Shown here: positions 1,129 to 52,544 of the stretch, in pieces | Position numbering within the stretch: the stretch's first letter is position 1 | Layout: each line of letters starts with the position of its first letter | DNA from: an uncultured Candidatus Rokubacteria bacterium | Lineage (GTDB): Bacteria > Methylomirabilota > Methylomirabilia > Rokubacteriales > CSP1-6 | Assembly (NCBI GenBank): GCA_963754315.1 | Contig: CAVWFS010000019.1 | Coordinates: 736,001-800,000, forward strand | Length of the DNA stretch: 64,000 bases | Direction: 5' to 3' | Position numbers and translations under genes: made by a program | Notes under the pieces: model-generated | What the model saw: only the letters and a program-made list of their open reading frames with translations | What the model was told of the DNA's origin: nothing | The model's database searches: none

Positions 1129-2355
1129 ATGAAGACGCTCAAGGAACTCATCGCCGAGGCCCGGGCTGCGGTCCCGGAAGAGGGGCCGAGCGACCTGCAG
1201 CGCCGCCTGACAGCCGGCGAGCCGGTCACCATCATCGACGTGCGCGATCCGGACGAGTATCGCGAGGGACACATCGAGCCTGCCACCAACATCAGTCGCG
1301 GTTTCCTCGAGTTCCGGATCGGTAGCGCGGTTGCGGATTCTGCGACCCCCATCGTCCTCTATTGCCAGACCGGACTTCGTTCCGTGCTGGCGGCCAAGGC
1401 CCTCCAGGATCTCGGCTACCGCAACGTGATCAACCTGCAGGGCGGCTTCCAGAAGTGGGCTCAGTCAGGACTCCCAGTGGTCAAAGACGTAGCCATGACC
1501 ACCGAGCAGATCCAGCGCTACAGCCGACACTTCTTGCTGAACCAGGTGGGGGAGAAGGGGCAGCGCAAGCTGCTTCGCTCAAAGACCTTGCTCATCGGCG
1601 CCGGCGGGCTCGGATCCCCGACGGCGCTCTATCTGGCCGCCGCCGGGGTGGGAACGCTCGGGCTCATGGATGGCGACAGCGTCGACATCACCAATCTGCA
1701 GCGCCAGATCTTGCACACCACCGCCGACATCGGCAAACCCAAGGTCGAGTCTGGGACGCGAACCTTGAAGGCGCTCAACCCGGACATGAATATCGTGTCC
1801 CTGCCCACGCGCATCACCGTGGACAACGTGATGGACATCATCCAGGACTACGACCTCGTCGTGGACGGCTCGGACAATTTCGAGACGCGCTACCTCGTGA
1901 ACGACGCCTGCTATCTGGCCGGCAAGACCAACGTCCACGGGTCGATCTTTCAGTTCGAGGGGATGGCCTCCGTCTTTGCTCCCAACCAGGGGCCGTGCTA
2001 TCGCTGCCTCTATCCGTCGCCACCCCCGCCGGGTCTCGTACCCTCCTGAAGCGAGGCTGGCGTCCTGGGCGTGCTCCCAGGAGTGATCGGATTGATCCAG
2101 GCCACCGAGGCCGTGAAGCTCCTGCTCGGAATCGGGGAGCCGCTGATCGGCCGACTCCTCACGTACGATGCGCTCGGCATGCGCTTCCGGGAAGTGCGCC
2201 TGCGCCGCGACCCCAAGTGCCCCCTGTGCGGGACGTCCCCCACCATCAAGGATCTGTCGATCCATCGGCCCGGGGGAGACGCATCCGCTGCGGAGGACAG
2301 GAACGGTACGGGCGAACCCGCTCTCGCCGGGACTCCCGCGCGGGCGGGGGGTTGA
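1129..2355 (+). CDS. moeB: Rhodanese-MoeB/ThiF (MoeZ-like) adenylyltransferase, probable selenoprotein (Sec307, TGA 2047-2049), 408 aa
   Basis: N-terminal rhodanese domain (DVRDPDEY, YCQTGLRS), then ThiF domain (RYSRH, GAGGLGSP, CYRC). ORFs 1129-2049 and 2071-2355 are in one frame; read-through gives PPPGLVPS-U-SEAGVLGVLPGVIG...DPKCPLCG, matching the family motif PSCxEAGVLG and supplying the second Zn CxxC. Confidence 0.9.
2050..2085 (+). promoter_or_regulatory. Putative bacterial SECIS hairpin of moeB
   Basis: Perfect stem TCCTGGG (2063-2069) / CCCAGGA (2076-2082), loop CGTGCT; loop G lies 22 nt after the TGA. Confidence 0.7.
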
Positions 2356-2369
2356 GGGGAGGACCTGAC

Positions 2370-2870
2370 GTGACACGCCACGCCAGCGCCGATCTTTCGC
2401 CACAGCTGGTCGAACGATTGTCGCAGGGCGACCTGAGAAAGCGCCTCGGAGTGGTGTTGCCTTTCGTGACCGTGGACGGCGATGGGTTTGCGCATCCGAT
2501 GCTGCTCTCCTATCTGGAGGTGCGCGCCTACGATGCTGGAACTCTCGGGCTCGTCATCCAGCGGCGTAGCGCGAGCGCACGCAACCTGGCCCAGCGTGGG
2601 ACGGGGACGTTGCTGGTAGTCGAGCCGGACATGACCGTGTACGTGAAGACCCGCCTCGTCGACGGGCCCCAGGATGTCCCGGGCGGCGAGGAGTTCGGGC
2701 TCGGCTACTTCCTACTTGGTGTGGAGGGCGTGCTGGAAGATGCGCCGACTGACTGGGAGGCGGGCATGGGCATCACAGCTGCCTCGCAGTATCGACCCCT
2801 CCCCACGCTTGGTGAGCCCTGGGCGCTGGCCACGCTCGCCGCCCTGGCGACGCCCCGCGCCCGCGCGTAG
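2370..2870 (+). CDS. Pyridoxamine 5'-phosphate oxidase-like (FMN-binding split barrel) protein
   Basis: GTG start after GGAGG; TVDGDGFAHPMLLS...SARNL...TLLVV pattern typical of the PNPOx-like family. Confidence 0.65.
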   Translation: MTRHASADLSPQLVERLSQGDLRKRLGVVLPFVTVDGDGFAHPMLLSYLEVRAYDAGTLGLVIQRRSASARNLAQRGTGTLLVVEPDMTVYVKTRLVDGPQDVPGGEEFGLGYFLLGVEGVLEDAPTDWEAGMGITAASQYRPLPTLGEPWALATLAALATPRARA

Positions 2871-2881
2871 TCGTTTGCCAC

Positions 2882-2963
2882 ATGGGGGGCCCCGACATGG
2901 CCCCCCATACCCCCCAAACGCTCGGACCCGCCCCGGGGAACCCGGGGCGGGCCTCGATCACAC
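2882..2963. repeat. GC-rich double-hairpin palindromic repeat (REP/RPE-like), copy 1
   Basis: Perfect stems ATGGGGGGCC/GGCCCCCCAT (2882-2908) and CCCGCCCCGGG/CCCGGGGCGGG (2927-2951), between convergent genes; homologous to 15954-16072 (reverse complement) and 54401-54480. Confidence 0.85.
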
Positions 2964-2967
2964 GGGG

Positions 2968-4044
<1,077 letters not shown>

Positions 4045-4085
4045 GCGATACCTCCCGTTCACAGATCCTTCAGTATAGCGCGCCC

Positions 4086-4610
4086 TCAGCGACTCACCTC
4101 GCGCACGAGATGTGGCAGCTCAGGGATGAGGAGTTTCTCTAGCGCCAACCGGCAGGCGTTGGGGGACCCCGGCAGGGAAACGACGATACGCCGGGAATGG
4201 ATCCCCATCTGGGCACGGGAGAGCATGGCGGCTGCCCCCACCTCCTGATAGGAGAGCATCCGGAACAGCTCGCCGAACCCGGGCAGTCGCTTCTCGAGGA
4301 GCGCCTCCACCGCTTCGAAGGTTGAATCACGCGAGGTGATTCCGGTACCCCCGGTGAGGATCACTGCGTTCACCTCGGGATGCCGGCAGGCCTCCCGGAC
4401 TGTTCGTTGCACGTCGACGGGTTCGTCCCGGACGATGGCGCTAGCGATCACAGGATGCCCAGCCGCCGCCAGCAGCTCGCGGATCAAGGCTCCGCTGGTG
4501 TCGGTTTCTAGTGTCTTCGTGTCGGAGATCGTCAGCACGAAACAACCCACGGTGGACGGCGCAGTAGCCTTGTGCTCGCGGGGCGTCCCGGCTGCGTCGT
4601 GGGGGCTCAC
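4086..4610 (-). CDS. moaB: Molybdenum cofactor biosynthesis protein MoaB/MogA
   Basis: VLTISD...DTSG, TGGTGITSRD, LPGFGELFR and SLPGSP motifs; GTG start overlaps the upstream stop. Confidence 0.9.
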   Translation of the reverse strand: MSPHDAAGTPREHKATAPSTVGCFVLTISDTKTLETDTSGALIRELLAAAGHPVIASAIVRDEPVDVQRTVREACRHPEVNAVILTGGTGITSRDSTFEAVEALLEKRLPGFGELFRMLSYQEVGAAAMLSRAQMGIHSRRIVVSLPGSPNACRLALEKLLIPELPHLVREVSR

Positions 4611-5927
4611 CGACCGGTGCCGTAAGCGCGGTCCAGCAACTCGACGATGTGCATCACGCGGATGGGCGAGCCGCGCGCGCGTAACCCTTTCTCGATCTGC
4701 AAGATGCAGCCCGGGTTCGCCGTCACCACGGCTTCGGCCCCGGTGGCGAGGACGTGGTCGACCTTGCGCCGGAGCAGACGGTCGGCCATCTCGGGCTCGG
4801 TGAGGTTGTAGATGCCGGCCGAGCCGCAGCACCAATCGGACTCGACCAGAGGAACCACCTTCAACGAGGGAACCTGCGCCAGGAGCTGGCGCGGCTGAGT
4901 CCTTATCTTCTGGCCGTGTACCACGTGACACGGATCGTGGTAGGCGACGGTCATCGGAACCGGTTCAAGCGGCCCGCTCAGGGGCGCTCGGGCCAGGAAC
5001 TCGGAGATGTCTTGCACGCTCGCGGCGAAATGCCGGGCACGCTCCGCGTACGCAGGATCGTTCTCGAGCAGGGCACCGTACGCTTTCATGTGGGCGCCAC
5101 ACCCCGAGGTGTTCACCACCACGGCGTCCACGCGTTGCCCCTGGAAGACGTCAATCGTGCGTCGAGCCAGCTCGAGCGCCCGCCCGTGGTCGCCTCCGTG
5201 AGCGTTCAGAGCTCCGCAGCATCCCTGGGTGGGCGGCACGACAACCTCAACGCCGTTCCGTGCCAAGACTCTGGCCGTGGCGCGATTGTGCGGGCCGAAG
5301 ACTACGGACTGGACACACCCCGTGAGCAACGCAACGCGAGCGCGACGCGCCCCTACCGGCCGGGATCAACGGGGGTAGCGAAGCTCGATCGGCCGCCGCG
5401 GGAATGGTCGGCGTCAGGGCCTCCCAGGCCGGCAAGGTGCCCGGAAGCAGACGAACCAGCCCGGTGGCCCTGGCCAGCGCCTGCATCCCGGTCGCCTGGT
5501 AGAAGCGAAGCCCGGCCGCGGCGGCCCGCAACAGCGTAGGCCGGCCGAGCAACAAGCCGAAATTGAGGGTCCGGAACAACCGACGCACGAGCCCACCCGG
5601 CCGCTGGTGCTCGATCTCGGCTTTGGCCGCCTCGATCAGGCGGCCATAGGGCACGCCGGCGGGACAGACGGTCTCGCATGCGCGGCAGTCGAGGCACAGC
5701 GACAGATGGCGCACGGTGGAGTCGGACAGTGCGATGCGTCCCTCGGCAAGCGATTTGATCAGAAAGATGCGGCCGCGGGGCGAGTCCATCTCGGTTCCGA
5801 GCTCCGAGAAGGTCGGGCAGTAAGCGAGACAAAGCCCGCAGTGCACGCACTGGTTGACACCCTCGACCGACATACCTCGAAGGGAGAGCGGCGCGGCCCG
5901 AGTCGGAGGATCGGCAGCCACGTGCAC
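4607..5927 (-). CDS. glcF: Glycolate oxidase Fe-S subunit; one +1 frameshift near 5357 (probable sequencing error)
   Basis: CVHCGLCLAYCP and CLDCRACETVCP ferredoxin motifs in one frame; CCG domains (GCCGAL, YHDPCH, WCCGSAG, ANPGC) in the other. Removing one G gives IPAVGARRARVALLTGC. Confidence 0.85.
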
Positions 5928-5944
5928 GGTCTCGGTCGTCCCCT

Positions 5945-7258
5945 TCAGATGCCGGCCACGAAGCGGCCGGGGTTGAGGATGCCCTTGGGATCGAGCTGGG
6001 CCTTGATACGCTGCATGACCCGACCCGCTGCCCCGAGGTCGTCCCATACCGGGGTCTCGGCCTTCACGGCCAACGGCGCCCATTCGAGCGTCGCGTGTCC
6101 TCCGCCAGAGCGCGCCAGGCCGCGCCATTCCGCCAGGACCGTCGCGACCGCCTTCAGCTCGGGTCGATCGCTGGGTGAAACGAGCGCCGCGGTGACCACA
6201 CCCACTCCCGCATGGGACGTCCACGCCGCCTGGAGTCCTCGCTGCCGCGCCGCGCCCGCGCCGTGCTCCATCAACTCGGTGACCAGGGCGGGAAGCACGC
6301 TAAAGCGCGCAATGGCCACCAGGCCCCTGCTCGACATCCAGGTGGGCTCGGGCCTGAGAACCGCCGAGTCTGGAAGAGGAACCACACCGTGACCGCCGAG
6401 GGGCGTGGTGACGGCAGCCAACTCGGTGCATTGCCAATCGACCTGCTCCGGCAAACCGTCGAAGGCAACGAGCAGGGTGGGCGCGCCCTCGAGGCCGAGG
6501 GCACGACTGGCCTCGGCATCGAGCAACTCGATCGCGGTGGCGATGAGATCGGCTCCCATGATCGCCCGCACGGCCACCCCTGCATCCTTCAGGTGATCGA
6601 ATCGAACACGAACCCAACGCTCCGTGTCCGGCAGAGGACGGAGCCGCACGGTCAGCTCGACGATCACGCCGAGCGTTCCGTACGAGCCCACGAATAGCTT
6701 CGGCAAGTCATAGCCGGCAACGTTCTTGACGACCTTGCCGCCGCCGCGCACGAGAGCACCCTCGGCGGTCACGACGGTGACGCCGATGAGCTGATCGCGG
6801 GCGGTACCGTAGAGGTGCCGCCGTGGGCCCGATGCGTTCGCGGCGATGACACCTCCGAGGGTCGCTCGATCGGCATCGGGCGGATCGAGCGAGAGCCACT
6901 GCCCCCTCTCCTGCAGCGCCGTCTGAAGCCGCTTGACGGTCATGCCGGCCTGGACAGTCGCTGTCAGGTCGCCCGGCACGTGCTCCAGGAGCCGGTCCAG
7001 ACGGGCGAGCCCGAGAACGATCCCTGTGCGGGCAGGCGGCGTGCCGACGCCGACGGCCGTGCCGCCTCCCCAGGGCATCAACGGAGTTTCTGTCTCGGCG
7101 GCGAGCGCAACCACGCTCTGCACTTCGTCCACCGAGCCTGGAAAGACAGCGACGTCGGGTGTGCGGCCCTCCACCACGTACGAGGACAGTTCGATGCCGG
7201 TGAGGACGTGGGCTCCCCCGACAATGCCGCGAAGCTTATCGAGAATCGCCGGCTGCAC
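5945..7258 (-). CDS. glcE: Glycolate oxidase FAD-binding subunit
   Basis: GGKVVKNVAGYDLPKLFVGSYGTLG and C-terminal DPKGILNPGRF; lies between glcD and glcF. Confidence 0.85.
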   Translation of the reverse strand: MQPAILDKLRGIVGGAHVLTGIELSSYVVEGRTPDVAVFPGSVDEVQSVVALAAETETPLMPWGGGTAVGVGTPPARTGIVLGLARLDRLLEHVPGDLTATVQAGMTVKRLQTALQERGQWLSLDPPDADRATLGGVIAANASGPRRHLYGTARDQLIGVTVVTAEGALVRGGGKVVKNVAGYDLPKLFVGSYGTLGVIVELTVRLRPLPDTERWVRVRFDHLKDAGVAVRAIMGADLIATAIELLDAEASRALGLEGAPTLLVAFDGLPEQVDWQCTELAAVTTPLGGHGVVPLPDSAVLRPEPTWMSSRGLVAIARFSVLPALVTELMEHGAGAARQRGLQAAWTSHAGVGVVTAALVSPSDRPELKAVATVLAEWRGLARSGGGHATLEWAPLAVKAETPVWDDLGAAGRVMQRIKAQLDPKGILNPGRFVAGI

Positions 7259-7279
7259 GGAGCCGCAACCAGCCCGCGC

Positions 7280-8755
7280 CTAGAAGCGCTGGGCGAGACC
7301 CTTCTCTTCGATGGCGTGGGGCTTGTAGGCCACCGGTCCCACTTCGACGCAGGATTTCTTGGTGGGAAAGACCTTGCCGGGGTTGCAAAGCCCGCCGGGA
7401 TTGAAGGCACTCTTGAGACGCTGCATGAAGTCGAGATCCGTCGCCGAGAAGATGAAGGGCATGAAGTCGGCCTTCTCGAGCCCGATTCCATGCTCTCCGG
7501 AGATCGAACCACCGACTTCGGCGCACACGCGCATGATCTCGGCGCCCGCTTCCACCACCCGCGACTCCTCCCCGGGTTTGCGCGGATCGTAGAGGATATT
7601 CGGGTGCAGATTACCGTCCCCGGCGTGAAAGACGTTTCCCACTCGGAGCCCGTGCGCAGCCACGATCTCGTTCACGCGGCGCAAGACGTAGGGCAGCTTG
7701 GTCCGTGGGATCACTCCGTCCATCACCATGTAGGCGGGCGAGACGCGGCCATACGCGCCGAAGGCCGACTTGCGCCCCTTCCACAGCAGCTGGCGCTCGG
7801 CTTCGTCCTGGGCCGTGCGAACCTCGCGGGCCCCGGAGTCCCGACACGCTTGCACGATTCGCTCCGTCTGCGCCGCCATACCTACCGCGAGCCCGTCGAG
7901 CTCGATCAGGAGGGCAGCGGCCGCATCGCGGGGATAGCCGCAATCGAAGGCATCCTCCACGGCCTGGATCGTCAGCTGGTCGATCATCTCCATGGCGGCC
8001 GGCACCAGACCACGCGCGATGACGGCTGACACCGCCTCCGACGCCTGGTCGGCCTCGTCGAAGACGGCGAGCACCGTCTTCACCGCTTGAGGCTTCTTCA
8101 GGATCCGCACGACGACAGTGGTCGCGATCCCGAAGGTTCCTTCCGAGCCTACGAACAGACCGGCCAGGTCGTAGCCAGGCGCTTCGCGCGTCTTGCCTCC
8201 CAGCCACACCACTTCCCCATCCGGCATGACGACCTCGAGCCCCAGCACATGGTTGGTGGTGACGCCATACTTGAGGGTATGCGGGCCCCCAGAGTTCTCG
8301 GCGATATTGCCGCCGATGGTGCACGCCTGCTGGCTCGACGGATCGGGGGCGTAGTAATAGCCGCGCGGAGCCACCGCCCAGGACAGGTGCAGATTGACCA
8401 GCCCCGGCTGGACCACGGCGATCTGGTTCTCGTAGTCGACCTCGAGCACACGGTTCATTCGCATGAGGGAGATGACGATGCCTCCCTCGGTCGGCAGGCA
8501 CCCACCCGACAGCCCCGTTCCTGCCCCCCGCGCCACGAACGGCAGCGCCTCACGATTGGCCAGCTTGACGATAGCGGCCACCTGAGCCGTCTCGCGGGGA
8601 AAGACCACGAAATCAGCAAGGGCTCGAAACAGGGTCAGTCCGTCAGACTCGTACGTCAGGAGCTCGTCGGGGTCGGAGAGGACGCTCCCCTGCCCGACGA
8701 TACGCTCGAGCTCCTGCCGCAAGGAGACTCGACCCGTATCGGTCAAGGCGGTCAT
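7280..8755 (-). CDS. glcD: Glycolate oxidase FAD-linked subunit
   Basis: RGAGTGLSGG, YAPDPSSQQACTIGGN, HAGDGNLHP and SGEHGIG motifs. Confidence 0.9.
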   Translation of the reverse strand: MTALTDTGRVSLRQELERIVGQGSVLSDPDELLTYESDGLTLFRALADFVVFPRETAQVAAIVKLANREALPFVARGAGTGLSGGCLPTEGGIVISLMRMNRVLEVDYENQIAVVQPGLVNLHLSWAVAPRGYYYAPDPSSQQACTIGGNIAENSGGPHTLKYGVTTNHVLGLEVVMPDGEVVWLGGKTREAPGYDLAGLFVGSEGTFGIATTVVVRILKKPQAVKTVLAVFDEADQASEAVSAVIARGLVPAAMEMIDQLTIQAVEDAFDCGYPRDAAAALLIELDGLAVGMAAQTERIVQACRDSGAREVRTAQDEAERQLLWKGRKSAFGAYGRVSPAYMVMDGVIPRTKLPYVLRRVNEIVAAHGLRVGNVFHAGDGNLHPNILYDPRKPGEESRVVEAGAEIMRVCAEVGGSISGEHGIGLEKADFMPFIFSATDLDFMQRLKSAFNPGGLCNPGKVFPTKKSCVEVGPVAYKPHAIEEKGLAQRF

Positions 8756-8792
8756 GTGCTCGCAGTATACTCGCACGCCGAGGGGGAATGCC

Positions 8793-10085: not shown

Positions 10086-10090
10086 AAATC

Positions 10091-10109
10091 GGGGCCTCGA
10101 GGGCTCCCC
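10091..10109. repeat. Degenerate single-hairpin copy of the palindromic repeat
   Basis: GGGGCCTCGAGGGCTCCCC directly after the stop codon, similar to GGGGGGCCTCGAAAGGGCCCCCC at 54404. Confidence 0.5.
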
Positions 10110-10146
10110 TGCCTCCCTGCTCGGGGGGCTTCTGAGTCCCATGTAC

Positions 10147-36795: not shown

Positions 36796-37638
36796 ATGAC
36801 AAATGTGGGTTTGGTTGGACTCGGGCTGCTGGGGCATGCGCTCGCCACACGCTTGCGCGCGGCGGGGCACACGGTGATCGGGTATGACGTGTTACCGGAG
36901 CGGCGAGACGCCCTGGTGGCGCTGGGGGGCGTCGCGACCTCCGCCGCGGCCGAGGTCGCGACGCGCACCGAGGCCGTCTGCATCGTGCTGCCCTCCTTGG
37001 CCGTGGTGGAAGAGGTCATCACCACCCTGGATGCGGCGCGCGTGGTGATCCAAATGAGCACGATCTCCCCAGGTCTCACGGAACGCCTCGCGCGGTTGAC
37101 CGGGGAGCGAGGGCAAGCCTTCCTCGATTGTCCAGTGAGCGGGACGGCGGGCATGGTGGCGCGCGGCGACGGCGTCATTTTCGTGGGGGGAGAACACGCG
37201 ATCTACGAGCGCTGGCGACCCATACTGGAGGCTATGTTGCCGCGGGTGGTCCATGTGGGGCAGGCGGGCCAGGCCATGACCCTCAAGCTCGTGGCCAATC
37301 TGCTCGTTGGCGTGCACAGCGCCGCCGCCGCCGAGGCTCTGGCCATGGCGCGCCGGGCCGGGCTCGATATGAGCATCGCCTTTGATGTCCTGACCTCGGG
37401 CGCGGCCGGGTCGCGAATGCTGGAAGTGCGCGGCCCAATGATGATCCGCGACGAGTTTCCGCCCCAGATGAAGCTCGACCTCTTCATGAAAGACCTTCAC
37501 CTCATCCAGGCGGCGGCCCGTGAGGTCGGCGCCGCAACTCCTCTCACTGATGTGGCTGAACGTCTGTACGCGGCAGTTCACGATCGTGGGCACGGCGGCC
37601 AAGATCTCGCCGCCGTCGTGAAGGCGTTGGATCCATGA
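36796..37638 (+). CDS. 3-hydroxyisobutyrate/beta-hydroxyacid dehydrogenase-family oxidoreductase
   Basis: VGLVGLGLLG, MSTISP, DCPVSG, KLVAN and KDL. Confidence 0.9.
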   Translation: MTNVGLVGLGLLGHALATRLRAAGHTVIGYDVLPERRDALVALGGVATSAAAEVATRTEAVCIVLPSLAVVEEVITTLDAARVVIQMSTISPGLTERLARLTGERGQAFLDCPVSGTAGMVARGDGVIFVGGEHAIYERWRPILEAMLPRVVHVGQAGQAMTLKLVANLLVGVHSAAAAEALAMARRAGLDMSIAFDVLTSGAAGSRMLEVRGPMMIRDEFPPQMKLDLFMKDLHLIQAAAREVGAATPLTDVAERLYAAVHDRGHGGQDLAAVVKALDP

Positions 37639-37997
37639 GCAAGGTGCTGGTCAAGAGCGCGTGGGGATCTGACGATCCGACCAAGGCCGCCTTCGCCTTT
37701 CTGCATGGCAACGCGCTGGCCGAAGCCGGTCACGAAGTTCAGATCTTTCTGCTCGGCGAGGCCGTCTCCTTGATGCGAGCACCAGTCGCGAACGCCGTGG
37801 TGCCCGTCGGCTGGCCGCCCTTGGCGGAGACCTTACAAACGACGGTAACGCTTGGCATTCCCATTCACGTCTGAGGCGCATGCTCCAGGGCCCGGGGGGT
37901 CCTCGAGTCAGACCTGTCAGGAAAGAACGCCGCCTTCGCCAACCCCTCGATCCTGGTAGGCCTGATCGAGTGGGCCGACAAACTCCTCACGGAGTGA
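37635..37997 (+). CDS. DsrE/DsrF-like protein, probable selenoprotein (UxxC; TGA 37872-37874), 120 aa
   Basis: DDPTKA..F...A...GHEVQIFLLGEAV; read-through gives IHV-U-GACSRARGVLESDL...LIEWADKLLTE, matching the family motif CxxCxxARG. Confidence 0.88.
37875..37910 (+). promoter_or_regulatory. Putative SECIS hairpin of the DsrE-like gene
   Basis: Stem AGGGCCC (37887-37893) / GGGTCCT (37897-37903), loop GGG starting 20 nt after the TGA; lower stem CTC/GAG. Confidence 0.7.
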
Positions 37998-42610: not shown

Positions 42611-42616
42611 TGACAC

Positions 42617-44598: not shown

Positions 44599-45719
44599 GC
44601 GAACCGTATCGTCCGTACACCTTGGTGGCCGAGCTGACCTACCGCTGCCCGCTTCGCTGTGTGTATTGTTCCAACCCGCTGGACTATGCGAGCCACCAGC
44701 CCGAGGTGGACACCGTGACCTGGCTGCGTGTCTTCGACGAGGCCGAAGACCTGGGAGTGGTCCAGCTCAACCTCAGTGGAGGTGAACCGCTCGTCCGCGA
44801 CGATCTGGAGGTCCTGGTGGAGCGAGCGCGCCGCCTCGATCTCTACACCAACCTCATCACCAGTGGCATTCCCCTCACGCGCGACCGGCTGGAGCGTCTG
44901 CGCGATCTCGGGCTCGACAATGTGCAGATCTCCATCCAGGACGTGACGGCAGCCGCGTCCGATCGGATCGCGGGCACACGATCCTTCGAGCGCAAGCTGC
45001 AGGCGGCCGCCTGGGTCAAGGAGCTGGGGTTCCCCCTCACCCTCAACACCGTCCTTCATCGGGAGAACCTTGCCCAGACGGCCGCAGTCATCGCGCTCGC
45101 CGAGCGTCTCGGCGCCGATCGTCTGGAGCTGGCCAACACGCAGTATCTCGGCTGGGCGCTGGCCAACCGGGAGGGGCTCCTGCCCACCCGTGAGCAGCTC
45201 GAGCGCGCACGGGGGGTTGCGGCGGACGCGCGTCGCCGGCTGCGGGGCCGCATGGAAGTGCTCTTCGTCACTCCCGACTACTTCTCCGATCTACCGAAAG
45301 CCTGCGTGGACGGCTGGGGACGGCGGTTCATCGTGGTGAGCCCCGACGGCCTCGCCCTCCCCTGCCATGCGGCCCACACCATGCCCGATCTGAGCTTCGA
45401 GAACGTGAAGGATCGCTCGCTCGGCGATATCTGGCGCGACTCGCCGGGCTTCAACGCCTTCCGCGGCGAGGCCTGGATGCCCGAACCGTGCCGGAGCTGT
45501 GATCGGCGTGGCATCGACTTCGGCGGCTGCCGCTGTCAGGCCTTCCACCTGACCGGGCGCGCCACAGCCACCGATCCTGCGTGTCACCTCTCGCCTGACC
45601 ATGGCCTCATCGAGCACGCTCGCACCGTTGCCGCCGAGGGTGTCCCCGCACCGTTCGTGTATCGGACGGCCAAGGCTGGGGAGGCACCATCGTCCGGGCC
45701 TCGGGGCACCACACCTTGA
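44595..45719 (+). CDS. pqqE: PQQ biosynthesis radical SAM/SPASM enzyme
   Basis: AELTYRCPLRCVYCSNP, ELANTQYLGWA, PCH and DFGGCRCQA. Confidence 0.96.
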   Translation: MSEPYRPYTLVAELTYRCPLRCVYCSNPLDYASHQPEVDTVTWLRVFDEAEDLGVVQLNLSGGEPLVRDDLEVLVERARRLDLYTNLITSGIPLTRDRLERLRDLGLDNVQISIQDVTAAASDRIAGTRSFERKLQAAAWVKELGFPLTLNTVLHRENLAQTAAVIALAERLGADRLELANTQYLGWALANREGLLPTREQLERARGVAADARRRLRGRMEVLFVTPDYFSDLPKACVDGWGRRFIVVSPDGLALPCHAAHTMPDLSFENVKDRSLGDIWRDSPGFNAFRGEAWMPEPCRSCDRRGIDFGGCRCQAFHLTGRATATDPACHLSPDHGLIEHARTVAAEGVPAPFVYRTAKAGEAPSSGPRGTTP

Positions 45720-45815
45720 CAAACCGGGATGACGAGACGTATCGTCCGGCCCGCGTAGGCCTTGCGTGGTCGGAAAATCACCAATAGTGATCGATCCTCA
45801 AAGGGGAGGCTCACC

Positions 45816-47012
45816 ATGCGGCGTATCGTCGTGACATCGCTCGCGGTGGCACTCGTAGTCGGGCTCGCGCTCGCTCAACTGGCTCCCGCCCAGCAGCCTC
45901 CACCGGCGTGGAAGCAGGGCCAGCCGGCCGAAATGGCCAACTCACCGCTCGCCCCCGTTCCTCTGCCGCCGGCGCCGACCCCGGCCAACCAGATCAAGGT
46001 CGACCAAATCAAGCTGCCGCCCGGCTTCACGATCAGCGTCTGGGCCGACGGAATCCCGAATGCCCGGGAGATGGCCTGGGGCTCGAAGGGCACCTTGTTC
46101 CTGGGCAGCAGGGTCGCAGGCAACGTCTACGCGGTAGTCGACCGGGGCGGCCGACGCGAAGTCAAGGTCATCGCCAAAGGACTGACCCAGCCGAGCGGAG
46201 TGGCCTTCCGGGACGGGGCGCTCTACGTGGCCGAGATTCCTCGCCTTCTGAAGTTCGAGAACATCGAGGCCAACCTGGACAATCCGCCCGCGCCCAAAGT
46301 CGTGTACACGTATCCGCCGGACGCGCATCATAACTGGCGCTATCTAGCCTTTGGGCCGGATGGAAAGCTCTACTTCAACATGGGGGCGCCCTGCAACATC
46401 TGCATTCCGCCAGCCACCCATGCCAACATCTCGCGTGTCAACCCCGACGGGTCTGGTTTTGAGTACTTCGCCTATGGTGTCCGCAACAGCGTCGGCTTCG
46501 ACTTCCACCCCGTGACCAAGGAGCTGTACTTCACGAACCATGGGCGTGACTGGATGGGCGACGATGTGCCCAACGACACCTTGCATCACGCCCCACGGGC
46601 CGGTCTGCACTTCGGTTACCCCTACTGCCACCAGGGCGACATTCTCGACCCCGACTTCGGGGTCGGTCGCTCGTGCAGCGAATTCGCTCCTCCGTTGCTC
46701 AAGCTTGGACCGCACGTGGCGGGCATGGGCATCAAGTTCTACACGGGGAGCATGTTTCCGGCGCAGTATCGCAACGTCGCCTTCGTGGCGCTCAAAGGCT
46801 CCTGGAACCGCACCCAGAAGAGCGGCTACAAGGTGATGACAGTCGATCTCAAGCCCGGCATGGCCCCGAAGTATGAGACCTTTGCCGATGGGTTCACGGA
46901 CGGGACCACGGTGTTCGGCCGGCCGACATACATCGAGTGGATGCCCGACGGCTCGATGCTCCTATCCGACGACTACCTCGGCGCTATCTTCCGCATCGCC
47001 TACCAGCGCTGA
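45816..47012 (+). CDS. Exported PQQ-dependent sugar/sorbosone dehydrogenase-family beta-propeller
   Basis: Signal peptide; LPPGF, FGPDGKLY, GVRNSVGFDFHP, FGYPYCH, GSWNR and LSDD. Confidence 0.88.
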   Translation: MRRIVVTSLAVALVVGLALAQLAPAQQPPPAWKQGQPAEMANSPLAPVPLPPAPTPANQIKVDQIKLPPGFTISVWADGIPNAREMAWGSKGTLFLGSRVAGNVYAVVDRGGRREVKVIAKGLTQPSGVAFRDGALYVAEIPRLLKFENIEANLDNPPAPKVVYTYPPDAHHNWRYLAFGPDGKLYFNMGAPCNICIPPATHANISRVNPDGSGFEYFAYGVRNSVGFDFHPVTKELYFTNHGRDWMGDDVPNDTLHHAPRAGLHFGYPYCHQGDILDPDFGVGRSCSEFAPPLLKLGPHVAGMGIKFYTGSMFPAQYRNVAFVALKGSWNRTQKSGYKVMTVDLKPGMAPKYETFADGFTDGTTVFGRPTYIEWMPDGSMLLSDDYLGAIFRIAYQR

Positions 47013-47105
47013 TTCCGGTCTTCCTGTAGCGGTCCCGGCGGGATGGTTCCGGCCGGGGCCGCACGGGAAGCCGCTCAGTCTTCCCTGCTTTCATTCACGG
47101 AAATC

Positions 47106-47717
47106 ATGAGACGTGTGGTGGCGCGTCGCCGGCGGGTAGCCGTTGCGACTCTCGTCGTGGCCCTCGGGGCGGCAAGCGCGAACGTTTCCGGCGCCGATCT
47201 GAATGCCGCGCGAAAGAAGGCAGAGCCCTGCGGGGCGTGCCACGGGGCCGATGGCAATGGCGCCACCCCCGGTACGCCTTCCCTGGCTGGGATGCCCACC
47301 TTCTACACGCACTGGCAGCTGATCATGTATCGGGATGGACGTCGCCGCGACCCGCAGATGTCACCCTTTGCCGTTAACCTCAGCGACGCGGACATGGCCG
47401 ATCTCGCCGCCTATTACGCCGCCCAGCCTCCACGGGCCCGACCCGCTCGGATCGACGCGGCGCGAGCGGCAGCCGGACAGCCCATCGCCCAGCAGCAAAA
47501 CTGCACCTCGTGCCACGGGCCCCGGCTCATGGGCCAGCAGGGGGTCCCCCGGCTGGCGGGACAGGATTTCGACTACCTCCTCAAGCGGCTGCGCGGGTAC
47601 AAGTCCAAGACCACCAGCGATCTGGACGGGATGATGACGATGGTGGCCCAGCCGCTGACCGAGGCGGACATCGAGAATCTCGTGCATTTCATGGCCAGCC
47701 TCGCTACCGCGCCCTGA
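47106..47717 (+). CDS. Diheme cytochrome c4-type
   Basis: Signal peptide; CGACH and CTSCH; PSLAG and PRLAGQ; Met ligands. Confidence 0.92.
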   Translation: MRRVVARRRRVAVATLVVALGAASANVSGADLNAARKKAEPCGACHGADGNGATPGTPSLAGMPTFYTHWQLIMYRDGRRRDPQMSPFAVNLSDADMADLAAYYAAQPPRARPARIDAARAAAGQPIAQQQNCTSCHGPRLMGQQGVPRLAGQDFDYLLKRLRGYKSKTTSDLDGMMTMVAQPLTEADIENLVHFMASLATAP

Positions 47718-47748
47718 GGGCGCAGAACTCGGCAGGCCCTCTGCCGGA

Positions 47749-48444
47749 TCAGGACACGCCAAGATAGCGCGACTTCACCTCTTCGTTGGCCAGCAGTTCG
47801 GCCGGGGTGGAGGAGTGCACGACGCGGCCCCGGCTGATGACGTGCACCCGATCGGCCACCGCCAGTCCCAGAGCCAGGTTCTGTTCCACAAGCAGGATCG
47901 GGAGGCCCTGCCGCTTCAGCTCTCCGATGACCTGGCCGACCTGGCGCACCAGCAACGGCGCCAGTCCCTCCGTGGGCTCGTCCATGAGGATCAGCTCCGG
48001 ATTCGTCATGAGGGCGCGGCCGATGGCCAGCATCTGCTGCTCACCTCCCGAGAGCGTGTTGCCGCCGTGACCCTCGCGCTCGCGCAAGCGGGGGAACAAC
48101 TCGTACACGCTCTCGAGAGTCCAGCGTCCCGAACGACCCGTACGTGCCACGAGCAGATTCTCCCGGACGGAGAGTGAAGGGAAGATACGGCGCCCCTGGG
48201 GAACCAGAGCCATCCCGCGCTCGACTGCCCGGAAAGGAGGCCAGCGCGTGATGTCGTCGCCTTTGAAGCACACCCGGCCGCGGCGAGGTGGGGTGAACCC
48301 GATGATCGAGCGGACGAGCGTGGTCTTCCCTACGCCGTTACGTCCCAGGATAGTCAGCACCTCACCAGAGTTCAGCGTGAGAGATATTCCCTGCAGCACG
48401 TGGCTGGTGCCGTAGTACGTATGGACGTCCTCGACCTCAAGCAC
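47749..48444 (-). CDS. livF: Branched-chain ABC ATPase
   Basis: GRNGVGKTT, LSGGEQQML, DEPTEGLAP and VEQN. Confidence 0.9.
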   Translation of the reverse strand: MLEVEDVHTYYGTSHVLQGISLTLNSGEVLTILGRNGVGKTTLVRSIIGFTPPRRGRVCFKGDDITRWPPFRAVERGMALVPQGRRIFPSLSVRENLLVARTGRSGRWTLESVYELFPRLREREGHGGNTLSGGEQQMLAIGRALMTNPELILMDEPTEGLAPLLVRQVGQVIGELKRQGLPILLVEQNLALGLAVADRVHVISRGRVVHSSTPAELLANEEVKSRYLGVS

Positions 48445-49195
48445 CGAGATAAATCTCGCGGACCTGGGGATTCGCCTTGATCTCGTCCCGCAACCCGTCG
48501 GCGATGACCCGCCCGAAGTGCAGCACGGTCACGTGCTGGCTGACCTCGAGGGCGATATCCATGTCGTGCTCGATCATGAGTACCGTGATGCCAGGATCCA
48601 GCCCCTTCAGCAGGTCGGCCATCAGGCGCGACTCGGCGGGCGAGAGCCCCGCTGTCGGCTCGTCCAGCAGGAGCACGCGCGGCTGCCCGGCCAGGGCCAG
48701 CGCGATCTCTAGCTGACGCTGCTCGCCGTGGGAGAGGTTCTTGACCATCGCCGTGGAGGTATGGCCGAGGCCCACCATCTCGAGGACGTCATGCGAGCGC
48801 TCGTGGAGGGCGGGCAGGGAGGCCAGGGGCCGCCACATCGCGAACTTGGCGGGGGTGAGCGCCTGCACGGCGAGCAGGCAGTTTTCCATCACGGAGAGGT
48901 CGGGAAACAGGTTGGTGACCTGAAAGGTCCGCGTGAGCCCGAGGGCAGCCCGGCGATGAGCGGGCGCGTCAGTGACATCGCGGCCGAACAGCAAGATCGA
49001 GCCCGACGTCACCGCAAGGGCGCCGCTGATCAGGTTGAAGAGCGTGGTCTTGCCTGCTCCGTTCGGCCCGATGAGCGCGCGGCGCTCGCCTCGTTGCACG
49101 GCGAGGGTCACCCCGTCAACAGCTCGCAAGCCGCCGAACGCCCTGGAAACCCCGCGCAACTCGAGCGCCAGCATACGTTGCGAAGGCGGTGTCAT
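48437..49195 (-). CDS. livG: Branched-chain ABC ATPase
   Basis: GPNGAGKTT, LSHGEQR, DEPTAG and IEHDM. Confidence 0.9.
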   Translation of the reverse strand: MTPPSQRMLALELRGVSRAFGGLRAVDGVTLAVQRGERRALIGPNGAGKTTLFNLISGALAVTSGSILLFGRDVTDAPAHRRAALGLTRTFQVTNLFPDLSVMENCLLAVQALTPAKFAMWRPLASLPALHERSHDVLEMVGLGHTSTAMVKNLSHGEQRQLEIALALAGQPRVLLLDEPTAGLSPAESRLMADLLKGLDPGITVLMIEHDMDIALEVSQHVTVLHFGRVIADGLRDEIKANPQVREIYLGA

Positions 49196-49270
49196 GCGAG
49201 GTCGAGTGCGGCCCGCAAACCCTCCTCGATTCGAGCCAAGACCTCAAGGGGAAGTGCGCGGACACGCACT

Positions 49271-50185
49271 TCAGCGGCCCCGGAGGGCGCCCACGATGCC
49301 GCGGGGGGCGAAGAGGGTCACCCCGATGTAGACGGCACCGAGGATAAGCAGCCAGCGCTTGGTGTAGACGCTCACGAAGTTCTTGAGGAAGACGATGACG
49401 GCAGCGCCAAGAGCAGGTCCGGCCAGGGTGCCGGGCCCCCCAAGGGCGACCATGAGGAGCGTCTCCACCGAGGTCAGGAGCTGCACGTCGGTGGGGGCCA
49501 CGAAGCCGTTGAAATAGGCCCACAGCACGCCCGCGAACCCGGCCACCGTCCCCGACAGCACGAAGGCCACGTACTTGTGAAGCCACACGTTGTAGCCGAG
49601 AGCGCGCATGCGGGACTCGCTCTCCCGGATGCCCTTGAGGCCAAGGCCGAAGGGAGAGCTCACCAGCAATCCGAGGAGGGCCCAGGCCACGGTGGCGGCC
49701 ACCAGGGCGAGATAGAAGAAGGGCACCGGAGAGGAGAAGTCGAGGGCGCCCAGCGCGGGGCGGGGAACGCCGGAGACACCATTGTCGCCCTTGGTGAGGG
49801 ACGTCCACCGAAAGGCGAGGCCCCATACGACCATCCCGAGGGCAAGCGTGATCATCAGGAAGTATGTCCCCGTCGCACGGATGGCCACCAGCCCAAAGAC
49901 GGCGGCGGCGACGGCGGCGAGCGCCACACCCGTCAGCACACATCCAGCGAAACCGACCCCACGCTCGGTGGTGAGGAGCGCGACGGCATAGGCCCCTACC
50001 CCGAAGTACGCGGAGTGCCCAAGGGAGGGAAGCCCGGTATAGCCCAGGAGCACGTCGAGGCTCATGGCCAGGATCGCCACGATCAGGGTCTGGGTCAGCA
50101 ACGTCAGCGGATAGGAAGGCAACCCCGGCGCCGAGATGGCAAGAATCGCGACGATGAGGGTGCCCAGGAGCGCCTTGTGTCTCAT
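49271..50185 (-). CDS. livM: Branched-chain ABC permease
   Basis: GYTGLPSLGH, YFLMITLA, IRESE and LGGPGTLAGP. Confidence 0.88.
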   Translation of the reverse strand: MRHKALLGTLIVAILAISAPGLPSYPLTLLTQTLIVAILAMSLDVLLGYTGLPSLGHSAYFGVGAYAVALLTTERGVGFAGCVLTGVALAAVAAAVFGLVAIRATGTYFLMITLALGMVVWGLAFRWTSLTKGDNGVSGVPRPALGALDFSSPVPFFYLALVAATVAWALLGLLVSSPFGLGLKGIRESESRMRALGYNVWLHKYVAFVLSGTVAGFAGVLWAYFNGFVAPTDVQLLTSVETLLMVALGGPGTLAGPALGAAVIVFLKNFVSVYTKRWLLILGAVYIGVTLFAPRGIVGALRGR

Positions 50186-51042
50186 GCTCGACCGAAAAGC
50201 CCGGTCGGCCTGAGCGCGAGGATCACGGCCATCGGCGCGAACAGGGTGAAGTAGGACAGCTCGGGAAAGAGCGCCTTGCCGAAGTTGTCGAGGAGCCCGA
50301 CCAGCAGGCTCCCTGCCATAGCTCCCGGCAAGCTCCCCAGGCCCCCGACGATCACCACGACGAAGGCATATGGCAGCATCTCGAAGTCCGCCCCGGGATA
50401 GACGCCGAGGAAGCCTCCTCCGATCACCCCGCCCAGGGCGGCCAGGGCGGCTCCCAGTCCGAAGATGCCGAGCGATACTGTGGGCACTCGAATGCCCACC
50501 CCCTGGGCCATCTCGGCGTCGTCGACGGCCGCGCGGATCATGGCACCCACCCGGGTCCGATCGAGGAGCAGCCAGAGCCCGATGCCGATCGCGACCGCCA
50601 CCACCACCATGAAGATCCGATACACGGGGAAAACAAAGGCCCCCGCGCGGAGGACGCCGCTGAGCACGGAGGGAGTCGGGATCGTGTAGGGGTCGCCGCC
50701 CCAAATCAGCAGCGCCAGGTCCTGGAAGATGAGAGCGAAGCCGATCGTCATCAGGACCTGCCCGAGCGTCTTGCCCTTGAGCCGACGGAGAAAGAGCCGT
50801 TCCATGCCCATCCCGATGAGCGCGATGGCCACCGCCCCGACGGCCAGGGCCAGCCAGAAGCTCGCCGTCTTCCACACCACGGACAGCCCGACGTACCCGC
50901 CCAACATGAAGTATGAGCCGTGCGACAGATTGACGATCCGCATGACGCCGAAGATCAGGGAGAGACCGCTCGCGAGCAGGAAGAGCAGCGCCCCGTAGGA
51001 GATGCCGTTGAATGCCTGCGTGACCCAGAACTCGATGGTCAC
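50182..51042 (-). CDS. livH: Branched-chain ABC permease
   Basis: GLSLIFGVMRIVNLSHG, GGLGSLPGA and RPTGLFG. Confidence 0.9.
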   Translation of the reverse strand: MTIEFWVTQAFNGISYGALLFLLASGLSLIFGVMRIVNLSHGSYFMLGGYVGLSVVWKTASFWLALAVGAVAIALIGMGMERLFLRRLKGKTLGQVLMTIGFALIFQDLALLIWGGDPYTIPTPSVLSGVLRAGAFVFPVYRIFMVVVAVAIGIGLWLLLDRTRVGAMIRAAVDDAEMAQGVGIRVPTVSLGIFGLGAALAALGGVIGGGFLGVYPGADFEMLPYAFVVVIVGGLGSLPGAMAGSLLVGLLDNFGKALFPELSYFTLFAPMAVILALRPTGLFGRA

Positions 51043-51155
51043 CGGCGGAAATTCTACTATGGATGGCCAGGACCAGGGCCCGCCATGGGGCGTAATACTC
51101 CCGGAGTGGTGGGACATGCCGTATAGTGCGGGTGGCCGTGGCCAAGGAGGGGACC

Positions 51156-52028
51156 GTGAAGCTGCCCTCGGAGCGCTTCGATTACTCGCCGATCATCAGC
51201 CGGCGCCCCTGGCGGCTTCCCAAGGGCGCCCGCCTTGCGGTATGGACGATCGTGAACATCGAAGACTGGGACATCCAGCGGCCCATGGCCCGCCAGTACC
51301 TCACGGCGCCGCAAGGGGTGTCGACCGTCCCGGATGTGCCCAACTGGGCGTGGCACGACTACGGGATGCGGGTGGGGTTCTGGCGACTCCTGGAAGCGCT
51401 CGGCAAGCGCAAGCTGCGAGCAACCACCTCCATCAACGCCCGGGTGTGCCAGAGTTACGAGCCGGTGGCGCGCGCCATGCTAGACGCCGGTTGGGAGTTC
51501 ATGGGACACGGGGTCGTCCAGGGGGCGCTTCACCTGGTCCCGGACCAGCGCGCAACTATCCGCGAGTCGATGGAGATCATCCAGAAATTCACCGGCAAGA
51601 AACCCCGGGGGTGGCTCGGCCCGGGCCTCACGGAGACGTGGGACACGCTCGACCTCCTGGCCGAGGAGGGGATCGAGTACGTCTCCGACTGGGTCAACGA
51701 CGACCAGCCGTATGAGATCCGCACGACGGCGGGACCGCTCGTGTCCGTGCCCTATACCCTGGAGCTGAACGACATCCCGGTGATGGTCATCCAGCATCAT
51801 GCCTCCCAGGCATGGGTCCAGCGCTGCCGGGACCAGTTCGACCGCCTCTACGCCGAGGGGGCCCGGAACCCTCGGGTGATGGCGATCGCCGTCCACCCGT
51901 ACATTTCCGGTGTCCCGCATCGGATCAAGTACTTCGAGGGCGTCTACGATTACATGCGCAAGCACAAGGGGGTCTGGTTCACCACTGGCGAGGAGATCTA
52001 CGAGTGGTGGAAGACGACCCGACTCTAG
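51156..52028 (+). CDS. Polysaccharide deacetylase-family protein (PuuE-like)
   Basis: VNIEDW, DYGMRVGFWR, GWLGPGL, DDQPY and AVHPY. Confidence 0.88.
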   Translation: MKLPSERFDYSPIISRRPWRLPKGARLAVWTIVNIEDWDIQRPMARQYLTAPQGVSTVPDVPNWAWHDYGMRVGFWRLLEALGKRKLRATTSINARVCQSYEPVARAMLDAGWEFMGHGVVQGALHLVPDQRATIRESMEIIQKFTGKKPRGWLGPGLTETWDTLDLLAEEGIEYVSDWVNDDQPYEIRTTAGPLVSVPYTLELNDIPVMVIQHHASQAWVQRCRDQFDRLYAEGARNPRVMAIAVHPYISGVPHRIKYFEGVYDYMRKHKGVWFTTGEEIYEWWKTTRL

Positions 52029-52070
52029 CCACCCTTTACTCCCCACGTCCGTCCCACGGGAGGTCCAATC

Positions 52071-52544
52071 ATGAACGGCGCTCGCTTCGGCCAGCCGGCA
52101 CCCGATTTCGCACTTCCCGCCACGAGCCAACCCGAGATCACGCTGTCGTCTTTCAAGGGCAAGTCCGACGTCGTTCTCGTCTTCTATTGCTACGACTGGG
52201 GCACCATCTGAACGCCGGAGCTCACCGACCTGGTCAAGGTCGAGCCGCGCATCCGAGAGCGCGGGGCCACGGTGCTGGCCATCAGCGCTGATAGCACGCT
52301 ATCGCACGCGGCCTGGCACAAGGCGCACAACTTTCCCTTCCCGCTCCTGAGCGACATTCACCGGACGGTAATCCGCGCGTACGGTGTGCTGGACGAGGCA
52401 CGCAACGTGGCCTGGCGTTCGACGTTCATCGTGGACCGTGACGGCGTCCTGCGCTGGGGTCAGGCGGGCGACCGGCACATGGTACGGGACGGCGCGGAGA
52501 TCCTTCGCGTGCTCGGTATCATCGCGAGCGTCAGGGGCGCGTAG
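52071..52544 (+). CDS. Peroxiredoxin (AhpC/TSA family), probable selenoprotein (Sec47; TGA 52209-52211), 157 aa
   Basis: GGAGG RBS; GQPAPDFALP...VVLVFYCYDWGTI-U-TPEL continues in frame into AISAD..SH..W...PFPLLSD...YGV...RSTFIVD..G (ORF 52272-52544). Confidence 0.9.
52212..52245 (+). promoter_or_regulatory. Putative SECIS hairpin of the peroxiredoxin
   Basis: Stem CGACCT (52226-52231) / AGGTCG (52237-52242), loop GGTCA starting 21 nt after the TGA; bulged lower stem GCT/AGC. Confidence 0.78.

Follow-up and report, generated by a model that had tools for sequence, protein, structure and literature searches.

A zinc-dependent dehydrogenase of Rokubacteriales probably holds its catalytic zinc through selenocysteine (Sec). 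Its UGA codon would be decoded by a SECIS element inside the open reading frame, about 130 nt downstream, docked through a 17-bp helix. Three further families that are not listed among selenoproteins probably join it. The lead to this gene came from three selenoprotein genes in the window, by which the whole analysed stretch of 64,000 nucleotides is meant, and the dehydrogenase matters more than they do. As a whole, this account of window genes and dehydrogenase is very probably the best explanation of the data.

The window holds the following features.

31..1080, plus strand: selD, selenophosphate synthetase of the Cys type (GGGCGCK) with no Sec codon; TIGR00476 416.7 bits, cut-off 125.
1129..2355, plus strand: rhodanese-MoeB (E1-like adenylyltransferase) fusion selenoprotein, ATG at 1129, 408 aa, U307; Pfam ThiF 131-365 spans the TGA.
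2047..2049, plus strand: Sec codon TGA of moeB; TGA in 29/30 and 78/80 homolog loci, the rest TGC.
2063..2082, plus strand: proximal SECIS hairpin of moeB, 7 bp, loop CGUGCU starting at +21; loop invariant in 80/80 distinct TGA copies.
37635..37997, plus strand: DsrE-like selenoprotein, ATG at 37635, 120 aa, U80 in a UxxC motif; Pfam DsrE 15-119 spans the TGA.
37872..37874, plus strand: Sec codon TGA of the dsrE-like gene; TGA in 26/26 aligned loci.
37887..37903, plus strand: proximal SECIS hairpin of the dsrE-like gene, 7 bp, loop GGG/GUG starting at +20.
52071..52544, plus strand: AhpC/TSA peroxiredoxin (AhpE-like) selenoprotein, ATG at 52071, 157 aa, U47; Pfam AhpC-TSA 7-129 spans the TGA.
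52209..52211, plus strand: Sec codon TGA of the peroxiredoxin; TGA in 19/19 aligned loci.
52226..52242, plus strand: proximal SECIS hairpin of the peroxiredoxin, 6 bp, loop GGUCA starting at +21; 111/114 pairs kept in 19 distinct copies.

A sequence-only reading of the window had placed in-frame TGA codons at 2047, 37872 and 52209 inside continuous homology. The Pfam domains that span each codon bear this out, and the TGA is conserved in relatives at all three sites (the two MoeB locus sets, of 30 and 80, overlap). MoeB passes the model NF006444 (cut-off 449) only with read-through, scoring 532 bits read through and 404 truncated.

The same reading held that Sec replaces cysteine (Cys). Alignment agrees for MoeB, whose U307 falls on the Cys of E. 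coli ThiF 'RNCRTAG', and for the peroxiredoxin, whose U47 falls on the Cys of mycobacterial Rv2238c 'FTGICQGEL'. For the DsrE-like protein, no Cys homolog was retrieved among the 26 aligned loci and a PDB search gave no match; its UxxC matches the motif published for the family. In each of the three proteins, we infer that Sec occupies the catalytic Cys position. The peroxiredoxin sequence YCYDWGTIU lacks the PxxxTxxU motif, having GTIU and not the textbook TxxU, and on sequence the protein is filed as AhpC/TSA-domain, AhpE-like. Judging from homologs, the three would serve as a sulfur-carrier activating enzyme (MoeB), a sulfur/redox protein (DsrE-like) and an AhpE-like peroxiredoxin.

The bacterial SECIS model places, 16-37 nt past the UGA, a hairpin whose first two loop positions include a G (PMC13188914), and all three window genes have a G-loop hairpin in that range. 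The 6-7 bp stems read from the sequence, with loops starting 20-22 nt downstream, were found again (CGUGCU at +21, GGG at +20, GGUCA at +21). Their identical spacing, taken to be special, turned out to be the modal value of the genome: the loop G lies at +17 to +31 genome-wide, and at +20 to +22 in 25 of 50 cases. Folding energy alone was rejected as support, the hairpins being no more stable than shuffles (60 nt; z 0.04, 0.03 and -1.12). A comparable hairpin with G at +20 to +22 follows 34 of 1205 ordinary TGA stops, so that finding one in 3/3 window genes by chance is unlikely, bearing in mind that the three were chosen after being seen. The moeB stem keeps 530/560 pairs in TGA copies versus 10/21 in Cys copies, and it is broken in all 3 Cys copies. 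In the dsrE-like gene, 24 distinct copies retain 157/168 pairs, among them G-C, U-A and A-U variants.

Profile searches of the genome, which is of Rokubacteriales type (Methylomirabilota), found selA, selB and selC on contig C3, all above family cut-offs; a search for these genes had been proposed as a check on the sequence-only reading. Together with selD, which lies in the window as had been noticed, the set is complete. By the standard bacterial route, SelD would supply selenophosphate, SelA would charge tRNA-Sec, and Sec would be delivered by SelB sitting on a hairpin with a G-loop some 20 nt past the UGA. The claim that the organism recodes UGA as Sec is supported by this machinery, by the conserved TGA in relatives and by the loss of the stem in Cys copies. 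To judge from these sequences, the three window genes almost certainly decode TGA by that route. A conserved operon link between selD and moeB was rejected: selD stands beside moeB in 0/109 relative loci.

Two other ways of reading the TGA codons are each very improbable. The first takes them for true stops, due to a split gene, a pseudogene or an assembly error. No stop is used more often in this genome, where TGA ends 1629 of 2522 long (training) genes, and the assembly does contain errors: three Sec genes carry frameshifts, and a glyoxalase TGA at C10:242, rejected as a new selenoprotein, is CGG or another sense codon in 9/9 relatives. Yet TGA stands at the same catalytic position across dozens of genera, in many separate assemblies, and is exchanged only with TGC; the part 3' of the codon stays conserved in frame, and the hairpin disappears where Cys returns. 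Under the second, a reassigned code or a tRNA resembling tRNA-ReC would make UGA a codon for Cys or Trp and not for Sec. Insertion of Cys by tRNA-ReC in a SECIS-dependent manner is known (PMC13582414), and a weak match to the tRNA-Sec model comes from an odd tRNA at C3:14188-14279. That tRNA has a CAAA loop, however, and the sole TCA-anticodon tRNA detected is a canonical tRNA-Sec (69.7 bits) adjoining selA and selB. A UGA-reassigned code (tables 4 or 25) finds no support in a genome where TGA terminates most genes.

A screen of the whole genome yielded 53 Sec-TGA genes, 49 in known families and 4 in new ones: the zinc-dependent dehydrogenase, DUF411, a PCP_red-like protein and a periplasmic-binding-like protein. 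The screen selected 136 TGA candidates, of which 18 were dropped unscanned as gene junctions. Of the 118 scanned, 45 of known families and the 4 new ones passed; 1 was rejected, and the remaining 68 fell out for having no domain or Cys-type motif spanning the TGA; 4 further Sec genes were added from later checks outside the screen. It is incomplete: 12 of the 13 AhpC/TSA matches with a TGA were caught, and FdhA and a radical SAM gene escaped it. Self-BLAST matches arising from GC-rich intergenic repeats were discarded. A large selenoproteome had been anticipated and was found; the window is denser in such genes than the genome, where 53 genes in 6.5 Mb make about 0.5 per 64 kb. A proximal hairpin of -8 kcal/mol or lower follows the TGA in 48/53 Sec genes versus 142/1205 true TGA stops.

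The four new families are absent from the 119-family table of the 2026 catalogue, and the supplements of Deng et al. 2026 may list some of them. For the PCP_red-like protein no Cys homolog was seen, and one database homolog has Arg at the site. In one family, 119 of the 120 homologs listed end at the TGA, and probably about 50 genes per genome are cut short in databases in this lineage.

The family that stands out lies outside the window.

G000:C1:50198-51247, plus strand: zinc-dependent medium-chain dehydrogenase, TGA at G000:C1:50306.

Its protein belongs with the threonine/sorbitol dehydrogenase group (PF08240, PF00107), matching PDB 2dfv over its full length (E 1e-49) and carrying the GHE motif and four-Cys cluster. 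The difference is that the codon of the first zinc-ligand Cys is TGA: U37 aligns to the catalytic zinc-ligand Cys of threonine dehydrogenase 'SICGTD'. This codon is TGA in 82 of 98 loci and TGC or TGT in the other 16, with no other codon and no other stop (46/60 TGA and 14/60 Cys after dereplication), making a TGA/Cys pair that Sec-using genomes conserve at a catalytic site. Four of five carrier genomes tested have selB, the exception being an 89% complete Cys carrier. The gene tree requires 4 Sec/Cys changes, and most Cys copies fall in one clade. Among the best 25 of 26 NCBIfam matches there was no Sec-specific model, and a Sec-ligated catalytic zinc in this dehydrogenase superfamily was not found in the selenoprotein catalogues searched.

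A contig from one DNA sequencing run spans the TGA and the helix with one letter different; the run may be the source sample. Contigs from RNA runs do not cover the TGA. Sequencing runs with a small share give no evidence of habitat.

No canonical proximal SECIS, with its loop 16-37 nt after the UGA, was found in the dehydrogenase; the candidate loop is at +134. Proximal hairpins and one at +48 were rejected as not specific to TGA copies. A hairpin with a GGGU loop lies at +127..+144 and adjoins a 17-bp helix in which +8..+25 pairs with +108..+125. The helix would loop out about 82 nt of coding sequence and bring the hairpin to the normal SECIS position. We infer that SelB would bind it there, allowing Sec insertion at the UGA.

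In this GC-rich mRNA, a duplex of -23 kcal/mol or lower occurs at 1507 of 2500 Cys codons. Because chance duplexes are so frequent, only comparative data count for the dehydrogenase. A single-sequence scan found a duplex plus adjacent hairpin at 12/2500 Cys codons and at 4/680 TGA candidates. The latter is the chance rate, and further bridged SECIS genes were rejected, leaving the dehydrogenase alone as credible.

Protein sequence and common descent could have produced the structure as a by-product, the true signal lying elsewhere. Besides the frequency of such duplexes, the single clade with most Cys copies speaks for this, as does the 77.7% of the bridge that Cys copies still pair because the protein sequence favours pairing. 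Over the named structure, TGA copies are 96.0% paired, with 23 double-sided changes at 4 pairs and 0/500 shuffles as high, versus 80.4%, 1 double-sided change and 146/500 shuffles in Cys copies; since the copies share ancestry, the shuffle result should not be taken as a probability. One double-sided change in this genome comes with an amino-acid replacement, F77L (A-U to G-C). The GGGU hairpin itself hardly varies and so shows no covariation, its loop being kept in 46/46 TGA copies versus 5/14 Cys copies.

In TGA copies, no stretch of the gene is under stronger synonymous constraint than codons 77-85 (1.00 against a median of 0.77), with no elevation in Cys copies (0.73-0.75). Codon 77 is TTT or CTT in 82/82 TGA loci and TTC in 15/16 Cys loci; other Phe codons are TTT in 14/446, so that a rare codon is fixed only where it pairs. 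In held-out loci, 8/8 TGA copies, two of them from another order, keep the full hairpin and a duplex of -23.8 to -34.5 kcal/mol, against -14.4 to -19.8 kcal/mol in 7 close Cys copies. Separate Cys lineages, L269 and L434 among them, each have a weakened structure; the Cys copy L264 retains a strong duplex. These observations make the by-product explanation improbable.

Somewhat less improbable, though still unlikely, is that the helix stimulates read-through in a general way, or serves regulation or stability, and that the UGA is decoded with no SelB on the distal hairpin. The helix starts 8 nt 3' of the UGA, and viral read-through stems start at a similar distance. Of the bacterial selenoprotein genes catalogued in BSepDB, about one in eight (12.6% of entries) has no canonical SECIS (PMC13326102), and the complementary 7+10 nt flanks that reposition the SECIS of Methanococcales fdhA1, which lies in the 5'-UTR, were not required in a reporter (PMC11881835). 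Against this, the adjacent hairpin carries the SECIS loop of the lineage (GG first), invariant only in TGA copies, and the codon swaps only with Cys. The most likely reading of the sequences is that the dehydrogenase places Sec at its catalytic zinc ligand through a distant SECIS, and the distal SECIS in itself is quite likely.

Compared with E. coli fdhF-type insertion, the genome likewise has the full SelA, SelB, SelC and SelD and the model hairpin in 48 of its 53 genes; the dehydrogenase differs, with no hairpin in the 16-37 nt range. The nearest layout is the archaeal fdhA1 repositioning, where the coding sequence immediately after the UGA would likewise base-pair and so draw a remote SECIS near the codon. 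The dehydrogenase is bacterial, and its two arms and hairpin all fall within the reading frame, with a helix of 17 bp. No bacterial distal-SECIS layout of this type was found in the literature searched.

MoeB (PF00899), DsrE-like (PF02635, UxxC) and peroxiredoxin (PF00578) are published selenoprotein families (PMC1088965; PMC13188914), sharing with the window genes their domains, Sec at a Cys position and a SECIS-like hairpin. The present members differ in coming from Rokubacteriales, in the N-terminal rhodanese of MoeB and in GTIU versus TxxU in the peroxiredoxin. The 53 genes are in the range of the BSepDB top ten (46-63 genes), which include no Methylomirabilota genome (PMC13326102), and the phylum is that of a metagenome-assembled genome credited with 63 (Deng et al. 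2026, as cited in PMC13188914). Because the three families are published and the phylum is reported to be Sec-rich, the window finding is ordinary, a point that the sequence-only reading had missed; its result corrects three annotations.

If the dehydrogenase reading is true, the position of a bacterial SECIS is set in three dimensions and not by linear spacing, and a class of selenoproteins escapes searches for proximal SECIS elements. For SECIS-less genes, the dehydrogenase supplies an explanation that is specific and open to mutation, its natural Sec and Cys alleles serving as controls. A distal SECIS would also release the residues after Sec from coding for a hairpin, which is relevant to selenoprotein engineering.

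The in-frame TGA codons that the sequence-only reading placed at 2047 (moeB), 37872 (dsrE-like) and 52209 (peroxiredoxin) are all at these positions and in frame, and the claimed homology across each holds, one Pfam domain covering each of the three. When TGA is read as selenocysteine (Sec, U), moeB encodes a 408-aa rhodanese-MoeB fusion (U307), the dsrE-like gene a 120-aa protein (ATG at 37635, U80), and the peroxiredoxin (Prx) gene an AhpC/TSA protein of 157 aa (U47). Against NF006444 (cut-off 449 bits), MoeB scores 532 bits read through and 404 truncated, and passes only when read through.

The aligned codon is TGA for moeB in 29/30 relative loci and 78/80 GTDB loci (overlapping sets; the remainder have TGC), for the dsrE-like gene in 26/26 loci (two of which are one gene), and for Prx in all 19 aligned sequences from 20 loci. 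The 80 nearest named MoeB loci mostly carry the label Rokuibacteriota or Methylomirabilota, which points to this lineage for the source genome. Sec stands opposite Cys in homologs of MoeB and Prx: U307 aligns with the ThiF Cys in RNCRTAG, as well as with Cys in the TGC copies, and U47 with the Cys of Rv2238c, both of these being the catalytic Cys residues. Neither the aligned relative loci nor a PDB search yielded a Cys form of the DsrE-like protein. One DsrE-like homolog (L079, in G015:C12, another genome) carries two TGAs as UxxU.

The downstream hairpins first described from sequence are present, with loops starting 21, 20 and 21 nt after the TGA, but in folding energy they do not surpass shuffled sequences. 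Stem pairing in MoeB is 530/560 in TGA copies versus 10/21 in three Cys copies; it is 157/168 in the DsrE-like family and 111/114 in Prx, and alternative pairs occur there. The gene selD, also reported in the window, lies at 31-1080 and has Cys instead of Sec; the genome has more than 50 selenoproteins. Its adjacency to moeB is unique to the window (0/109 relative loci).

A search for selA, selB and tRNA-Sec found all three, each over cut-off, grouped on contig C3 of the source genome, G000 (6.5 Mb, 20 contigs, 95.6% complete, 4.5% contamination). The tRNA-like gene at G000:C3:14188-14279 (+) has a CAAA anticodon loop and a long variable arm, and its match to the tRNA-Sec model is weak. Tandem GC-rich palindromic repeats of ~120 nt lie upstream of selC (locus L009:1-490), and many intergenic sites, including G000:C19:580092 and 580262, carry related copies. 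Because TGA is still the main stop codon (1629 of 2522 long genes), recoding is site-specific. The observation of three recoded TGAs is confirmed, and its interpretation as Sec recoding is supported.

The Sargasso Sea paper (PMC1088965) covers all three families in its available text, and a 2026 review (PMC13188914) lists them in its table of 119 families. The finding on the window genes is correct and ordinary; they are new members of already-known families.

The large selenoproteome that had been predicted is borne out by a genome-wide search, which found 53 Sec-TGA genes, 3 of them frameshifted in the assembly; contamination could account for a few extra. In total, 163,528 TGA codons were scored by coding model, hairpin test and self-BLAST. 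Of the 136 selected, 118 went through Pfam and NCBIfam scans, which searches by family supplemented. The screen is incomplete, recovering 12 of 13 TGA-bearing AhpC/TSA matches. A proximal hairpin is found in 48/53 Sec-TGA genes versus 142/1205 true TGA stops, the loop G of the Sec-TGA genes lying at +17 to +31 (nt downstream of the TGA). Known families account for 49 of the 53.

Known-family Sec-TGA genes in G000
UGSC, 8; Prx/AhpC, 7; AhpD/CMD, 5
DsbA, TlpA and WAxxUGC, 3 each
GrdB, PrdB-like, Grx, SelW and rhodanese, 2 each
GrdA, PDO, Trx, VKOR-Trx, OsmC, SelL-related, FdhA, radical SAM CUAEP, MoeB and DsrE, 1 each

TGA occurs in 13 of 24 AhpC/TSA-domain matches across G000. A glycine/sarcosine/betaine reductase-type cluster (L450, G000:C8:116000-132000) contains GrdA and two GrdB selenoproteins; this system is best known from anaerobes. 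A glyoxalase-family candidate (L218:66-407, -) was rejected, its TGA being a sense codon in all relatives; it is a nonsense change or an assembly error. For comparison, the top ten of BSepDB have 46-63 genes in the text available (PMC13326102), and PMC13188914 cites 63 predicted selenoprotein genes for a Methylomirabilota MAG.

The remaining 4 of the 53 genes are absent from the PMC13188914 table as available.

Sec-TGA genes of the four unlisted families
G000:C1:50198-51247 (L260:1501-2550), + strand, Zn-dependent dehydrogenase, TGA at L260:1609-1611
C1:132704 (L182:3846-4283), + strand, DUF411 protein, U in PTUxCC
C7:217011 (L197:301-777), - strand, PCP_red-like hypothetical protein, FUQC motif 25 codons before the end
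C14:272387 (L229:301-770), + strand, NMT1-like periplasmic-binding-type protein, UECG where Cys forms have CEWG

Literature searches on these four gave nothing relevant among the matches listed; work by Deng and by Haft-Tolstoy may bear on them. They are not mentioned in the available parts of the deep-Sep paper (PMC12013277) or PMC10298544, and the BSepDB text and one supplement (PMC13326102) gave no match for Methylomirabilota, Rokubacteria, alcohol dehydrogenase or DUF411.

In DUF411, 29 aligned loci divide into 21 with TGA and 8 with TGC; the exchange and a proximal SECIS extend across the order, and stem pairing is 161/168 versus 39/64. The gene adjoins a VKOR-thioredoxin selenoprotein gene on the opposite strand. 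The PCP_red-like gene has TGA in 23/23 loci, in 22/22 its frame closes exactly 25 codons downstream, and its stem pairs at 157/162; no Cys form was seen among homologs, one of which has Arg there, and 119 of 120 listed database homologs end at the TGA. For the periplasmic-binding-like protein, the 11 loci comprise 6 with TGA and 5 with TGC (stem pairing 25/25 versus 11/25). This gene is frameshifted in G000 near residue 160; an ortholog lies at L353:1501-2400.

The dehydrogenase matches threonine/sorbitol-type medium-chain dehydrogenases over its full length. Its U37, numbered with the second of two neighbouring ATGs as the start, aligns with the Cys of SICGTD, which is established as the catalytic zinc ligand. 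TGA is present in 15/18 close orthologs in the order and 67/80 metagenome loci; the others have Cys, with no other stops. Dereplication at 95% leaves 46 TGA and 14 Cys copies, and the tree needs 4 changes. Rows from unpublished genomes (G011, G071, G132) enter the homolog counts, including those for DsrE-like, Prx, the unlisted families and the dehydrogenase; no claim rests solely on them. Two tandem Sec-type paralogs, both with the helix and hairpin described below, occur in another order (L454:2700-5023, genome G163), and Pup ligase and proteasome genes adjoin the dehydrogenase at L447:7477-11861 (-).

No hairpin was found in the canonical SECIS range of the dehydrogenase. Synonymous codons differ between TGA and Cys copies in a way that pointed to codons 39-42 and 77-87. 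Consensus folding gives a helix, here called the bridge, pairing +8..+25 with +108..+125 (L260:1619-1636 and 1719-1736), directly followed by a 7-bp hairpin, GGCGACC-GGGU-GGUCGUC, at +127..+144 (L260:1738-1755). The G000 sequence alone gives the same fold (z -2.3). In TGA copies only, constraint along the gene peaks at codons 77-85; codon 77 is TTT or CTT in 82/82 TGA loci and TTC in 15/16 Cys loci, and the GGGU loop is kept in 46/46 TGA versus 5/14 Cys copies.

In TGA copies the helix and hairpin are 96.0% paired, 4 pairs account for 23 double-sided changes, and 0/500 shuffles score as high; Cys copies give 80.4%, 1 change and 146/500. The relatedness of the sequences inflates this shuffle test. 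The duplex averages -26.0 kcal/mol in TGA copies and -14.9 kcal/mol in Cys copies. Among 15 held-out close copies, some of which may be near copies already used, the two groups separate fully; the set includes two TGA copies from another order (79% and 73% identity). Against this, bridge-type duplexes are frequent by chance in G000 (duplex plus hairpin at 0.5% of Cys codons), the protein sequence alone accounts for pairing of 78%, the hairpin varies too little to show covariation, and a strong duplex persists in one Cys copy.

In E. coli, the mRNA tunnel is where the lower SECIS is unwound, ~11 nt become inaccessible, and SelB may already be bound when the ribosome reaches it (PMC4513850); a SECIS has also been fused to 16S rRNA helix 16, engineered from spatial closeness (PMC10945757). 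The bridge may keep the distal hairpin positioned at the tunnel entrance while the UGA occupies the A site. Opening of the first bridge pairs would let +118..+126 extend the hairpin, and the looped-out segment, which contains the GHE motif, would remain coding. The distal layout likely arises because no G-loop hairpin can be encoded within GTDLKIxH, the stretch that follows Sec.

No distal bacterial SECIS was found in the literature searched; Su et al. (2005) reportedly described a 3'-UTR SECIS in E. coli. Reviews, including the available text of PMC13188914, locate the SECIS of bacteria 16-37 nt downstream of the UGA. The closest published case to the bridge is the repositioning of the archaeal fdhA1 SECIS, in which the flanks were not required (PMC11881835). 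The dehydrogenase is probably a Sec-zinc enzyme with a candidate bridged distal SECIS.
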